This document shows, piece by piece, positions 37,732 through 51,784 of a stretch of 64,000 nucleotides of DNA (position 1 is the stretch's first letter; each line of letters starts with the position of its first letter). Below the pieces are notes generated by a model, which was not told where the DNA came from, made no database searches, and was given only the letters and a program-made list of their open reading frames with translations. Both the position numbers and the translations under genes were made by a program. Origin of the DNA: Planctomycetota bacterium (GTDB lineage Bacteria > Planctomycetota > J058 > J103); the NCBI GenBank assembly GCA_026004615.1, contig BPJM01000001.1, positions 251,482 through 315,481 of the forward strand, given 5' to 3'.

Positions 37732-39543
37732 CTAGCGCACCACGCGCGTCTCCGCCAGGAAGTCGTGGAAGGCCTGGCGCGAGACGGTGATGGCGGCGAA
37801 GGCGTACCCCAGGCCGAACGGCAGGGTGGACAGCACCTTGCCGACGGAACGCATGAAGGCGCGCCCGAGCCCGATCGGCCGCCCCTCGAGGTCGACCACC
37901 CGCAGGCCGAGCACCCACTTGCCCGCGGTCGCGCCCCACAAGCCTGTCGCCAGCCAGTCGTAGGCGAACCAGGCAAACGGCGCCCACCACTGGTGGACCA
38001 CGAGCAGGAACAGCGCCAGGTCGATCGCCAGCGCCAGGCCCCGCAGCGCCACCCCCGCCGCGCGCACCGGCACCAGCCGCGGCGAGCCGCCGGCCGGAGC
38101 GAACTCCAGCTCCTCGTCCCGGCGCCGGTAGTGCTCGGAGAACAGCGCGCTCGCACCGATGCCGACGACCATCGCGCCCAGAAACGCCCACAGCGGCACC
38201 CGGAAGCGCAGCAAGAACAGCAGGCTCACCGCGAAGGCGACGAGCCCCGCCACCGCCGCCTTCACACTGCCGGCTCGGAGCCGGAACTGCCCGGGCGAGG
38301 AGCCGTCATGCTCGCCGGCCATACCCCCCGACCAGGCCGCCAGCGGCTCGCCGTCGCGAAACACCAGCCGCACCCCGCCGTCCGGCTCGCGCGGATCACC
38401 GAGGCAGATCGTCACCCCCTCGGCCAGCTCCAGCGGCTCGCGGCCGACCTTCTCGATCAGGTCGACGGGACGCTTGCCCTGCGGCACGTGCGCCGGCAAC
38501 AGCCAGGTGCCGGCCGCGGAGCCCGCATCCCGGATGGTCCAGGCGCCGCCTTGCCGCGCGATGACGGCGTGCCGCGCCGCCACCGCGCGCCCCCGCAGCC
38601 GTATGCCCGCCTCCCGGCCGCTGCCGAGCACCGCCGGCCCGGCGCCGAGCAGCAGCGGCGCACCGCCCTCGAGCGGCTCCAGCCGCGCGGTCCCGCCCCG
38701 CCGCGCCTCGCGCCCTGCGCCCGGCGGTGCCGCACCGCTCCTGCCGAGCCGCGCCCGCACCGCTTGCAGCTCGCGCAGCACCGCCCCGGCGTCGGGGTAG
38801 CGCGCCTCCAGCCGGCAGTAACAGCCCGCGAAGATCCGGTCGAGCGCGGGATCGAGACCCGCCACCAGCTCGGAGGGCACCTCGCGACCCTCGGGCAGCG
38901 CGCCGGTCAGCATCTCGAAAAGCACCAGCCCGAAGGCATACACGTCCGCGCGCGCATCGACCGGCCGCCCGGGCTGCTTCTGCTCCGGCGCCATGTAGGC
39001 GAGGGTACCCGAACTGCCGCCGGCGGCCTCGGAGACGAACGCCCCGCTCAGCAACAGCTCGCCGTGCTCCAGCTCCCGCAGCCGCCCGAGCCCGAAGTCG
39101 GCCAGCTTGACCCGCCCGTCGCGCCGCAGCAGCACGTTCTCCGGCTTGAGGTCGCGGTGCACGATGCCGCGCCGGTGGGCCTCGGCCAGCACCGCCAGCA
39201 CCTCGCAACCGATCCCGACCGCCTCGTCCGCCTCCAGCCGGCCGCGGGCCCGGAGCCGCTCGCGCAGGCTCTCGCCCTCCACGTACTCCAGCACGAGGTA
39301 GGGCGGATCATGGTCCGGATCGAGCCCCAGCACCTCGACCGCACCCGGGTGCCGCACCAGGTCGGCGAGCACCCCCTCGTGTCGGAGCAGGCGCGCCTGC
39401 TCGGCGTTGGCCGGCACCTTGATCGCGACCACGCGATCGGTGAACACGTGGTGGTGCGCGCGCCAGACGACGCCGAAGCCGCCCGCGCCCAGGCGTTCGT
39501 CCAGCACGTATTCGCTGATCCGGTCGCCCCGCTTCAGCTCCAT
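37732..39543 (-). CDS. Ser/Thr protein kinase fused to an FHA-like domain, TM segments and a C-terminal RDD domain
   Basis: ATG at 39543. GAGGFGVVW, VAIKV, HRDLKPENVLL, LADFGLG, LAYMAPEQ (canonical Hanks kinase). An FHA-like stretch (AVLGSGREAGIRLRG..VAARHAVIARQGGAWTIRDAGSAAGTWL). TM helices. RDD pattern (R..LALAIDLALF..GKWVLGLRVVD..FHDFLAETRVV). Confidence 0.88.
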   Translation of the reverse strand: MELKRGDRISEYVLDERLGAGGFGVVWRAHHHVFTDRVVAIKVPANAEQARLLRHEGVLADLVRHPGAVEVLGLDPDHDPPYLVLEYVEGESLRERLRARGRLEADEAVGIGCEVLAVLAEAHRRGIVHRDLKPENVLLRRDGRVKLADFGLGRLRELEHGELLLSGAFVSEAAGGSSGTLAYMAPEQKQPGRPVDARADVYAFGLVLFEMLTGALPEGREVPSELVAGLDPALDRIFAGCYCRLEARYPDAGAVLRELQAVRARLGRSGAAPPGAGREARRGGTARLEPLEGGAPLLLGAGPAVLGSGREAGIRLRGRAVAARHAVIARQGGAWTIRDAGSAAGTWLLPAHVPQGKRPVDLIEKVGREPLELAEGVTICLGDPREPDGGVRLVFRDGEPLAAWSGGMAGEHDGSSPGQFRLRAGSVKAAVAGLVAFAVSLLFLLRFRVPLWAFLGAMVVGIGASALFSEHYRRRDEELEFAPAGGSPRLVPVRAAGVALRGLALAIDLALFLLVVHQWWAPFAWFAYDWLATGLWGATAGKWVLGLRVVDLEGRPIGLGRAFMRSVGKVLSTLPFGLGYAFAAITVSRQAFHDFLAETRVVR

Positions 39544-39559
39544 GCGCGCGCCATCCCTC

Positions 39560-40426
39560 TCACCGTTGCGCCTCGTCGATGCGGTCACACACCGCAAAGT
39601 GGTACACGAAGGCGAGCAGGGCTGCGAGCACCAGCAGTACCGCGCCGCCCCAGCCCGGCCGCAATCCCATGAGCACCAGCCCGCACAGCACGCTCGCGCC
39701 CACCAGCCCGGCAAGCAGCCAGGCATTCGCCCGATTGCTGCGCCGCCGGACCACGGCGACCACGACCGGATGGAGCGCAAACGGCAGGCCGCCGGTGAAC
39801 AACAACCAGACGAGCAACCGCACCAGGCCCGAGAACGACCGCATCGTCGCATCCAGCCAGTCCACGGACCACCGGCTGTCGATGCGCCTGGCGCTTCGCA
39901 CCAACCCGCCGGGGACCTCCGCCTCGTCGCGCAGCCGGATCAGCCGCGCGCGCAGCTCGACCTCGGCCCCGAGGCCCCGGCGCCCGTCGGTGAATGCTCC
40001 CAGCTCGGAGAACAGCACTCCTTCCACCAGCTCGTCGCCTGCGGCCAGCGCGCGGCCGAGCTCGATCGCCTGCTCGCGGTTTGCCGGCGCCGCGCCGCCG
40101 AACCGCTCGGCGACGACCTCGCGCACCCGCCCCAGCCCGACCAGAAAATAGAGTTCCCGGTCCTCGACCGCCTCGTAGAGCAGGTCCGTCACCCGCCCGT
40201 CGAGGTCGCGGTATACCGGCGCCACCACCAGCTTGCGGATCTCGTCGCGCCGCGGCAGCGCGGCCGCCACCTCGCGCACCACCCGCTCGGCCAGCACGCG
40301 CCGGTACGGATCCAGCTCGCGCCGGGGCTGCCCGCCGAACAGCTTGCCGGCCAAAAACCAGACCAGCACGCCGGTGGCGGCTGCCAGAAAGGCGATTTCG
40401 ACGATCCGCGCCGCCGTCCGAAACAT
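39560..40426 (-). CDS. polytopic membrane protein, unknown function (cluster member)
   Basis: N-terminal TM (IVEIAFLAAATGVLVWFLAG), a ~170-aa soluble region, then three C-terminal TM helices. There are 16 nt to the downstream kinase gene and 3 nt to the upstream gene. Confidence 0.7.
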   Translation of the reverse strand: MFRTAARIVEIAFLAAATGVLVWFLAGKLFGGQPRRELDPYRRVLAERVVREVAAALPRRDEIRKLVVAPVYRDLDGRVTDLLYEAVEDRELYFLVGLGRVREVVAERFGGAAPANREQAIELGRALAAGDELVEGVLFSELGAFTDGRRGLGAEVELRARLIRLRDEAEVPGGLVRSARRIDSRWSVDWLDATMRSFSGLVRLLVWLLFTGGLPFALHPVVVAVVRRRSNRANAWLLAGLVGASVLCGLVLMGLRPGWGGAVLLVLAALLAFVYHFAVCDRIDEAQR

Positions 40427-40429
40427 GCC

Positions 40430-50558: not shown

Positions 50559-50565
50559 CTCCGGA

Positions 50566-50595
50566 ACTATAGCACCGCCACCGGCCATCGGGCAA
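50566..50595 (-). promoter_or_regulatory. sigma70-like promoter for the ESCRT-like operon (minus strand TTGCCC-N18-TATAGT)
   Basis: Minus-strand TTGCCC (50595-50590) and TATAGT (50571-50566). This is the only AT-rich hexamer in the 317-nt gap upstream of the HTH gene. Confidence 0.4.
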
Positions 50596-50772
50596 AGGTG
50601 GGCGCGCCCGGCCTGCCCCGCCGAACGCCCAGCGAACGGCGCGCCAGCGGGAGACCGAACCTGGCGCCGAATGCAACACGTTCGCAGAAAAGATGTTGGG
50701 CAGATGCGGGCGCGGCTGCCGCCGGGATCGACGCCAGCCCCGTGGCGTGGTTCCCCAACCGGCTGCGCCGGC

Positions 50773-51784
50773 TCAGCGCGCCGCGGCACCCTGCCGCGCC
50801 AGCGACGCCAGGCGCGCCGCCGCGCCGCCGGCGACCGAGGCCACCGCCTGCAGCTGCGCCGGCTGCTCGAGCACGCCCTTGCGCAGCAGCTGCGTGGCCT
50901 CCTGCTGCAGCGCCTGCAGCGCCGCGGGCGACAGCGTCTGCAGCCCGCCGCTCGCGAGCAGCTGCTGCGCATCGCTCGCGATGCGAGTGCAGGTCTCGGC
51001 CGCACGCTGCCGCAGCCCCAGGGCGAGCGCGGTGGCGAGCTCACGAGGCGGCTCGCGCTCCAGCCATCCGCGCTCGATCAGCCCCGCGCTCCACCGGAAG
51101 TCCTCCTCGGTGAGCCGCCGGTCGATGCCGCCGAGCTCGCGCGCCACCTGGAACCTGGCCAGCAGCTGCTCGGCGCTCTGCTGCGCCTGGGCCAGCTGCT
51201 GGCGCTCGAGCGGCACGCCGGATTGGCGCGCGGCCACGTACGCGCTGTCCGCGACCGCCAGCGCAAGCGCGACCTGCTCCTGCGCCGGCAGGGCAGCGGT
51301 GCCGAGCAGCTCCAGGCCCGCCTGCACGAATGCCGCGCTGCGCGCGGAGGCCTGGCTGCCCAGCCGCTCGCGCTCGTACAGCTGCATGAGCTCGCCGTGG
51401 CGCTGCAGCGCCTGGGCGCGCGCCTCCGCATGCGCCGTCCGGCCCAGCGCGGCCACCAGCGCCTGCACGCGCTCGCCGTCCAGCCGGCCCCCCCGCGATG
51501 GGTTCCCGCGCCTGCTGGCCGACGGCGGTGCTGGAGGCCCCACCCGCCAGGGCCGCCATGATCTGATCGAAACTGCGAAGGGTCTCGGCATCCGGGGTGC
51601 TCTCCAGCGAGGCGTGCAGCATGGCCGCCCCGAGATCGGGCACCGGGCCGCCGGTGCGCGGGATGCGGATCGGCTCCCCGCCCTTGCCGGCCTCCGCCGG
51701 GGGTGCGGCCGCCTCGGGCTCCGCCGCCCCCGGCTGCCAGTCGATCCCCTGCCCCTCGATCCCGCCCGCCCCACGGACCCCCAT
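50773..51784 (-). CDS. all-helical hypothetical protein; apparent 1-nt frameshift at the homopolymer 51488-51494
   Basis: ATG at 51784 after AGAGAGGA: MGVRGAGGIEGQGIDWQ..TLRSFDQIMAALAGG..AVGQQAREPIAGG. It then continues in the 50773 frame (RLDGERVQALVAALGRTAHAEARAQALQRHGELMQLYERERL..). The junction falls on a G7 run (minus sense). Confidence 0.6.

Follow-up and report, generated by a model that had tools for sequence, protein, structure and literature searches.

A ten-gene operon in uncultured Planctomycetota encodes a candidate bacterial counterpart of the ESCRT-III/Vps4 machinery

[quoted passage not shown] A comparative-genomics study of the phage shock protein system noted occasional bacterial Snf7 homologues, and also MIT+Vps4-like ATPases transferred into bacteria including Planctomycetes, with snf7 displaced by a gene for a tetratricopeptide repeat protein with six transmembrane (TM) segments (TPR+6TM; PMC11237479). 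SPFH proteins are known to accompany PspA as well as ESCRT loci of archaea (PMC10936438). Here we analysed a 64,000 nt stretch of DNA (hereafter the window) from a Planctomycetota bacterium (GCA_026004615.1, contig BPJM01000001.1, positions 251,482-315,481, forward strand), which carries a ten-gene, 12.7 kb operon. We read this operon, with a probability of roughly 70%, as a bacterial equivalent of the ESCRT-III/Vps4 machinery, here in a Planctomycetota lineage that has not been cultured: a Snf7-family protein (E3), an ESCRT-III-fold protein (E2) and two MIT-AAA ATPases (AAA1 and AAA2) are encoded together and conserved together. The core of the original prediction for this DNA, an ESCRT-III-like plus Vps4-like bacterial system, is therefore supported, and it was refuted by none of the tests proposed alongside it.

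The identification is anchored by E3 (198 aa; 45394-45990, on the minus strand, as are all genes of the operon), which matches the Pfam Snf7 family (PF03357) over positions 4-157 of the 171-position profile (E 1.7e-4; 21.7 bits, below the 27.3-bit gathering score). When 42 diverse members of the E3 family were scanned singly, 29 matched Snf7 (best E 6.5e-8) and none matched PspA_IM30 (PF04012) at E up to 0.01, so that the proposed check of Snf7 against PspA_IM30 came down on the side of Snf7. A profile of the E3 family searched against all PDB sequences returned eight matches, all of them ESCRT-III proteins (CHMP3, Snf7 and CHMP2A), and BLASTP aligned E3 with CHMP3 at 29% identity over 102 aa (E 2e-4), beginning at a common MGLF N-terminus. 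The full N-terminal motif of E3 is MGLFKSK, and a conserved C-terminal amphipathic helix reads D.EI..GL.EIE.EL. Compositional bias is unlikely to lie behind the Snf7 match, because the two other small proteins of the operon, E1 and E2, are equally charged and coiled-coil-rich and show none among the families listed for them. The family comprises ~190 database proteins, nearly all from Planctomycetota metagenome-assembled genomes (MAGs), many of which carry a precomputed Snf7 annotation. Judged by sequence, E3 is a true Snf7/CHMP-type ESCRT-III family protein and not a PspA.

The assignment of E2 (212 aa; 47414-48052) comes from its predicted structure. An AlphaFold2 model built on a 60-sequence alignment (predicted local distance difference test, pLDDT, 80; predicted template-modelling score 0.68) shows a short helix a0 (residues 6-11), a hairpin of 41 and 48 residues (19-59/63-110), helices a4 and a5, a disordered linker and a C-terminal helix (a6). 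The top Foldseek matches of this model in the PDB were S. islandicus CdvB, CdvB2, Vipp1, CHMP1B, CHMP2A-CHMP3 and CHMP3, and about three quarters of its 20 best matches were CdvB, CdvB2, CHMP or Vipp1, with probabilities up to 0.99. The protein opens with the motif GIFxxLFGRKK, its C-terminal helix carries ExxLxxRL, which resembles a type 1 MIT-interacting motif (MIM1), and it occurs in one or two copies per locus. On the strength of the model we accept E2 as a predicted ESCRT-III-fold protein with the complete ESCRT-III helix order.

E1 (266 aa, GTG start; 48161-48961) belongs to a family of 391 database members, and its gene always adjoins that of E2 in the mapped loci. Its AlphaFold2 model (pLDDT 75) shows a0, a hairpin and a long helix (helices at residues 3-11, 30-70, 77-125 and 130-185), then a disordered linker and a short terminal helix; this is only compatible with an ESCRT-III fold, and E1 is possibly a divergent subunit. 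Profile-against-PDB sequence searches with E1 and E2 gave no ESCRT-III match. The comparison of E1 with E2 by hhalign returned 87% with diverse, locus-derived alignments vs 0.2% with low-diversity, database-derived ones, and because the score was not reproducible we treat their homology as unproven. The E1, E2 and E3 families all have an L-F-(G/K) motif at the N-terminus and short, conserved helices at the C-terminus. A PspA identity for the small proteins was considered and rejected, as PspA_IM30 matched no member of the E3 family at E up to 0.01 and was missing from the families listed for E1 and E2. The claim of three Snf7-like proteins thus stands for E3 by sequence and for E2 by fold only, whereas E1 is compatible in fold.

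The two ATPases, AAA1 (428 aa; 46099-47385) and AAA2 (383 aa; 42484-43635), share an architecture of a ~75-residue helical N-domain, a low-complexity linker and one classic AAA cassette. Walker A (GPPGTGKT) and Walker B (DE(F/I)D/E) are intact in both and, like pore loop 1 (SKYFGESAR in AAA1, SKWVGESEK in AAA2), invariant in the orthologue alignments. The motifs cited in the original prediction are all found in the translations, as these pore loops, ATNRPWDLDEAVLSRFD, ATNEPWSLDPAVLRPGRFD and the C-terminal EEKLAKRLEEE of E2. An N-terminal profile of AAA1 (35 orthologues) matched the VPS4B MIT domain (2cpt) in the PDB at E 0.002, and eight of its 11 best PDB matches were VPS4A/B MIT domains or full-length VPS4B; the putative MIT domain spans ~residues 5-78 (47152-47373, minus strand). 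The corresponding AAA2 profile matched PDB entry 2mpk (E 0.0016), listed as chitin synthase 1, which we take to be an oomycete chitin-synthase MIT domain, and hhalign identified the N-domains of the two ATPases as homologues (95%). In Pfam, AAA1 matches AAA (1.9e-34) and Vps4_C (0.022), the latter recurring in 32 of 35 orthologues (best 2.2e-7); AAA2 matches AAA (1e-40), and Vps4_C is found in 27 of 40 of its orthologues (best 2.2e-8), the copy in the window being without such a match.

The best single-domain PDB match of AAA1 was spastin (157 bits, vs 140 bits for p97 D2), and a profile of its C-terminal part (lid plus helix) scored spastin at 46, katanin at 45.5 and p97 D2 at 34 bits. AAA1 therefore looks like a meiotic-clade enzyme, nearest to spastin and katanin when scored domain by domain. 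AAA2 is colinear with VPS4B from the MIT domain through the AAA cassette (36% identity, 172 bits); the MIT part of the VPS4B reference sequence agrees with the VPS4B alignment from the AAA1 N-terminal profile search. Among 1.84 billion representatives, the listing of AAA2 relatives was dominated by multi-AAA Cdc48-like proteins, a ranking which does not separate Vps4 from Cdc48 because scores were summed over domains. Five proteins of 660-1100 aa (P0312, P0314, P0315, P0335 and P0379) combine an N-terminal match to AAA2, from MIT through AAA, with a further stretch that matches AAA, so that the AAA2-type ATPase may also exist in tandem or as MIT-AAA fusions. Both operon ATPases appear to be classic-clade AAA proteins nearest to spastin, katanin, VPS4 and Cdc48, and not to FtsH or SpoVK. 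With MIT-like N-domain profiles, classic-clade cassettes and Vps4_C in most orthologues, the proposal of two Vps4-like MIT-AAA ATPases is supported.

A pattern scan with the E3 profile, which covered one genome per prokaryotic species and was followed by mapping of the loci with tblastn and hidden Markov models, detected 64 loci, each in a species-level MAG and nearly all labelled Planctomycetota; all carriers are MAGs and none is cultured. The core consists of a conserved ~270-aa domain (MC), E1, E2, E3 and at least one MIT-AAA ATPase, an SPFH-like/propeller protein (SP) is usual, and a four-TM protein (T4) and a kinase (K) are added in types A and C. Type A, which includes the window, is arranged as MC-E1-E2-AAA1-E3-(K)-AAA2-SP-T4-K, type B as SP-MC-E1-E2-E2-AAA1-E3-AAA2 and type C as MC-E1-E2-E3-AAA2-SP-T4-K. 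E3 shares 40-84% identity among loci and the ATPases diverge in step with it. Either ATPase can be absent, and the closest relative of the window locus (L004) lacks AAA2. Neighbouring genes vary by lineage (GAPDH, PGK, ProRS and MnmG in L001, a type B locus; sulfur and carbon metabolism genes in the window), and the module therefore moves as a unit within chromosomes. The recurrence of the same gene set, in order, in 64 genomes is far beyond chance, and the gene neighbourhood put forward for a synteny check is thus conserved.

Some loci depart from these layouts or carry additional genes. In L029 and L053 E3 stands alone, with several kb of flank and no recognisable ATPase, and in L031 MC-E1-E2-E3 is followed by nearly 10 kb downstream without a recognisable partner; the partners in these three genomes may lie elsewhere or be too divergent to detect. 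In type B clusters, E1 and the two E2 copies are separated by a gene for an Ala/Pro-rich protein of 173 aa whose N-terminus resembles a signal peptide (e.g. L001, 6998-7519). Directly after AAA2 these clusters also encode a 232-aa protein and a 419-aa TPR protein (e.g. L001, 11755-13709), the latter recalling the published bacterial operons in which a MIT+Vps4-like AAA gene precedes a TPR+TM gene.

The window has ~74% G+C, for which reason raw open-reading frame (ORF) lists are full of spurious frames, and third-position G+C together with homology was used to pick out the ten successive genes of the operon (37732-50455). From the end of the last gene to the first they are separated by 16, 3, 59, 56, 160, 108, 28, 108 and 63 nt, with 317 nt beyond, and an independent assembly of the same organism, processed with its own gene caller, contains identical products of 266, 212, 428, 198 and 513 aa. 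Pfam recovered the domains that had been called (Pkinase+FHA+RDD, Pkinase, AAA in both ATPases and a MerR helix-turn-helix (HTH)). The first gene (49025-50455) encodes a MerR-like protein in which the HTH (Pfam MerR_1, residues 37-96, E 1.7e-7) is fused to the MC domain; in ~50 related loci MC immediately precedes E1, in most cases with no HTH attached, and it gave no Pfam or PDB sequence match. In SP (664 aa; 40430-42424), a region that is tentatively SPFH-like at the N-terminus is followed by a coiled coil and by a solid beta-propeller at the C-terminus; SP is found in 37 related loci. The propeller profile matches designed and natural WD40-type propellers (E 7e-16), so that this part of the predicted SPFH-like/coiled-coil/propeller protein stands; the SPFH part remains tentative, with Band_7/SPFH detected in six of 29 SP orthologues (best 2.4e-4) and not in the SP of the window, and with no SPFH structure among the 60 best profile-against-PDB matches listed.

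T4 (288 aa; 39560-40426) has four hydrophobic segments in its translation and orthologues in 18 loci, always between SP and the kinase, and matches nothing in Pfam or NCBIfam. In the Ser/Thr kinase K1 (43692-45233; Pkinase 1.6e-33), HGD and DFQ stand where HRD and DFG are expected, and the C-terminus carries a TM segment; a kinase at this position occurs in only a few loci (L004, L020). K2 (37732-39543), the last gene of the operon, encodes a canonical kinase-FHA-RDD membrane fusion (Pkinase 3.3e-36, FHA 5.5e-7, RDD 5.3e-19) and keeps its place at the 3' end in clusters of types A and C. Two kinases and an FHA domain are thus present in the cluster as proposed, but across loci they are accessory and not core.

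Compared with the archaeal Cdv/Asgard systems (CdvB/CdvB1/CdvB2 plus CdvC), the operon likewise joins a MIT-AAA ATPase to several candidate ESCRT-III paralogues, the E2 model finds its best structural matches in CdvB and CdvB2 of S. islandicus, the ATPases follow the order MIT, linker, AAA, C-terminal helix, and an extra adaptor gene stands beside the ESCRT-III genes as in archaeal loci, some of which include an SPFH protein (PMC10936438). It differs in its bacterial host, in having no CdvA, ESCRT-I/II or ubiquitin module, in its partners (MC domain, SPFH-like/propeller protein, four-TM protein and kinase-FHA-RDD fusion), and in that the PDB matches of the E3 profile are eukaryotic CHMP3 and Snf7, not CdvB. 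The two ATPases are moreover of apparently different ancestry and fall far below the CdvC equivalog cut-off (193 bits for AAA2 and 162 for AAA1 vs 650), neither being a CdvC equivalog. With eukaryotic ESCRT-III (CHMP3), E3 shares the MGLF N-terminus, a near-full-length Snf7 domain and an EIDR(L/I) segment, and with VPS4 the ATPases share an AAA1 MIT profile that matches VPS4A/B and an AAA2 pore loop of the same type (SKW.GESEK). In contrast to the eukaryotic machinery, ESCRT-0/I/II, Vta1 and Bro1 are lacking, RPGRFD in AAA2 and S-R-F in AAA1 take the place of R-R-F, and just one subunit (E3) is recognisable as Snf7 by sequence.

Among bacterial systems, PspA/Vipp1 (IM30) proteins share the superfamily fold, Vipp1 and PspA being among the structural matches of E2 and E1, and PspA-YdjI shares the bacterial host, a candidate SPFH partner and stress-type regulation; PspA_IM30 nevertheless matches no member of the E3 family at E up to 0.01 and is not among the families listed for E1 and E2, and PspA systems have no MIT-AAA disassemblase. 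The operons in which a MIT+Vps4-like AAA gene is followed by a TPR+6TM gene (e.g. Opitutus ACB74714.1, PMC11237479) resemble the present system in their bacterial MIT-AAA ATPase and, for type B (L001), in the TPR gene downstream of AAA2, but in the 64 genomes described here the ATPases have kept beside them a gene of the Snf7 family and two more that are ESCRT-III-like. A full-text literature search for Planctomycetota or Planctomycetes with ESCRT, Vps4 or Snf7 returned no description of the module. The remark in the original prediction that no described bacterial system of this composition was known to it holds to that extent, with the qualification that MIT+Vps4-like ATPases by themselves have already been noted in bacteria (PMC11237479). 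We would group the system with ESCRT-III/Vps4, as a new form of it that is bacterial and has a novel set of partners.

A number of results weigh against an ESCRT-III/Vps4 identity. Among the small proteins, E2 has no sequence-level relative beyond its own family in Pfam or in profile searches of the PDB, and the Foldseek E-values of its model are weak (at least 0.14). For E1, Foldseek returned helical hairpins of a generic kind, CHMP2A ranking second and PspA 22nd. Snf7 and PspA_IM30 were both absent among the top 25 families listed for 53 E2 and 43 E1 family members (E up to 0.1), and hhalign found no link of either family to E3 (0.2-4%). The terminal helices with MIM1-like spacing, EEKLAKRLEEE in E2 and D.EI..GL.EIE.EL in E3, are pattern matches only. 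In the ATPases, Pfam MIT was not among the reported matches of either protein or of their orthologues. Vps4 and CdvC carry a second region of homology (SRH) of the form A-x-x-R-R-F without an RPGR insert; the SRH of AAA1 (ATNRPWDLDEAVLSRFDKKVLIPLP, containing AVLSRFDKK) likewise has no RPGR insert, but with S-R-F it keeps one of the two arginines, and that of AAA2 (ATNEPWSLDPAVLRPGRFD, containing AVLRPGRFD) is of the Cdc48/PAN/FtsH type rather than the Vps4 RRF type. AAA2 also scores higher with Cdc48 than with CdvC in NCBIfam (CDC48 244, PAN 217, FtsH 198 and CdvC 193 bits) and is closest to Cdc48 D2; to judge from its motifs it is a hybrid, with a Vps4-type pore loop and a Cdc48-like arginine-finger motif. 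Finally, the variable composition of the loci, including one-ATPase loci and two E3-only loci, is hard to reconcile with an essential machine.

This last point bears on what such a machine might do. The same parts could serve a planctomycete lineage without FtsZ as its scission machine for cytokinesis or budding, Cdv-like in its role and not concerned with repair or maintenance. Many Planctomycetota have no FtsZ and an unknown division machinery, the ESCRT-III plus MIT-AAA core resembles cdvB/cdvC, and several ESCRT-III-like paralogues with two ATPases would permit staged polymer exchange. However, the module is present in just 64 species-level genomes of the pattern scan, none of them cultured, its composition varies to the point of losing either ATPase, and it is wired to stress-type signalling parts (Ser/Thr kinase-FHA, MerR HTH and the SPFH-like protein), which makes a division role unlikely in our judgement.

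The variable accessory content and the kinases would also suit an anti-phage or conflict system, in which kinase/FHA sensing leads to AAA-driven remodelling of helical effectors, by which the membrane is damaged or sealed in the manner of abortive infection. PADLOC likens the kinases to its PD-T4-6, Mad6 and PglW models and the ATPases to those for IetA and TRIP13, and NCBIfam likens the ATPases to IteA; these PADLOC matches are to generic kinase and AAA parts only, however, and six of the ten proteins (E1, E2, E3, SP, T4 and MC) match nothing. The flanks are metabolic or housekeeping genes without integrases or other defence genes, a scan of 2.9 million viral contigs in IMG/VR gave no relatives, and the core genes diverge in step across deep lineages, which suggests vertical inheritance; we hold a defence function to be very improbable. 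MIT domains are known chiefly as binders of ESCRT-III tails, and this sits poorly with a reading in which E1 and E2 are generic coiled-coil substrates or adaptors and the ATPases are Cdc48-derived, MIT-tagged unfoldases for quality control, the resemblance to ESCRT being partial and coincidental. The missing family matches of E1 and E2 and the closeness of AAA2 to Cdc48 D2 would fit it, as would the report of bacterial MIT+Vps4-like ATPases with non-Snf7 partners, the TPR+6TM proteins (PMC11237479). Yet a bona fide Snf7-family E3 lies between the two ATPase genes in nearly every locus and the E2 model has the complete ESCRT-III helix order, and such a coincidence strikes us as scarcely credible.

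We thus retain the reading as a bacterial ESCRT-III/Vps4 counterpart, which most likely uses ATP to build up and take apart an ESCRT-III polymer on the cytoplasmic membrane. E3, E2 and probably E1 would bind the cytoplasmic face of the inner membrane via their N-terminal L-F-G/K amphipathic motifs and polymerise together, forming a composite filament by which the membrane is bent or stabilised. Hexameric AAA ATPases would then dock via their MIT domains onto the MIM-like C-terminal helices (ExxLxxRL in E2, D.EI..GL.EI in E3) and thread subunits through a pore lined by the K-W or K-Y loops, which would remodel and recycle the polymer and supply the energy for scission or repair. SP and MC are likely adaptors or nucleators at the membrane site, comparable to YdjI for PspA and to CdvA or ESCRT-II for ESCRT-III, and the membrane kinases, the FHA domain and the MerR-type HTH may add lineage-specific phospho- and transcriptional control. 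Because of the signalling parts, the SPFH-like partner and the variable composition, we favour membrane repair or maintenance under stress signalling as more likely than an essential role in division.

Upstream of the MerR-like gene, the original prediction had placed an eleventh minus-strand gene (50773-51784); ten of the eleven were confirmed in their coordinates and gaps, and this one was rejected as a member of the system. Its span of 1012 nt is not a multiple of three, and the ATG at 51784 belongs to an ORF (51041-51784) whose frame differs from that of the stop at 50773. Third-position G+C is coding-like only from ~51510 down to 50773, the last ~245 codons of a stop-to-stop ORF (50773-52230, minus strand), and the upstream part of that ORF is seemingly read in another frame, through a frameshift or as two overlapping ORFs. 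Pfam gave no match for the product, and none of the 67 related loci holds a homologue. Between this span and the MerR-like gene, ~110 nt upstream of the start codon of the latter, lies a promoter-like site, TTGCCC-18-TATAGT with an extended TG (50566-50595, minus strand), which is a consensus match only (the scan found two sites in the region vs 0.2 expected). As the eleventh gene fails on frame, coding signal, homology and promoter position, we take the unit to be a ten-gene operon.

The operon is flanked by ordinary metabolic genes, encoding a ThiS-rhodanese-ThiF fusion, a pyridoxal-phosphate (PLP) enzyme, an FGGY kinase, a cysteine dioxygenase, a glyoxalase-fold protein and a kelch protein. 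A single ORF on the plus strand contains ThiS, rhodanese and ThiF and is followed by the PLP-dependent, cysteine-synthase-like enzyme (31399-34189); the region of this triple fusion could be a sulfur-carrier-protein cysteine pathway, and the cysteine dioxygenase gene is located at 36101-36898. Elsewhere in the window, a 1636-aa protein (20361-25271, plus strand) with repeated PKD/REJ/Big_9/cadherin-like domains is typical of large planctomycete surface proteins, and a tRNA-Arg(TCT) (30801-30877, minus strand) was the sole Rfam or ARAGORN match in the 64 kb. Between 58000 and 64000 the G+C falls from ~77% to 65-70%. Here an ORF on the minus strand (57511-59724) matches a ClpC/ClpB-type ATPase over no more than its middle and its second half (AAA_lid_9, UVR, AAA_2), the first AAA domain being absent, and the ORFs upstream of it have no family match; the region may hold a disrupted gene or foreign DNA.

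As to origin, the partnership of Snf7 polymer and MIT-AAA ATPase might not be an archaeal invention: it might predate the split of bacteria and archaea and persist in a deep planctomycete lineage, or Planctomycetota might have acquired a complete ESCRT core and rebuilt it as an FtsZ-independent scission or endomembrane machine, a proposal which we put forward as a speculative and rather doubtful one. If it were true, by either route, a phylum long discussed for its eukaryote-like membranes would have a working ESCRT. A conserved bacterial operon with both parts would revise the distribution of ESCRT-III/Vps4, would permit a direct test of when the partnership of polymer and disassemblase arose, and would offer a compact, phospho-regulated ESCRT system for reconstitution. 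For the Planctomycetota, whose mechanisms of division and of internal membrane formation are largely unexplained, it would provide a concrete candidate for membrane scission or repair.

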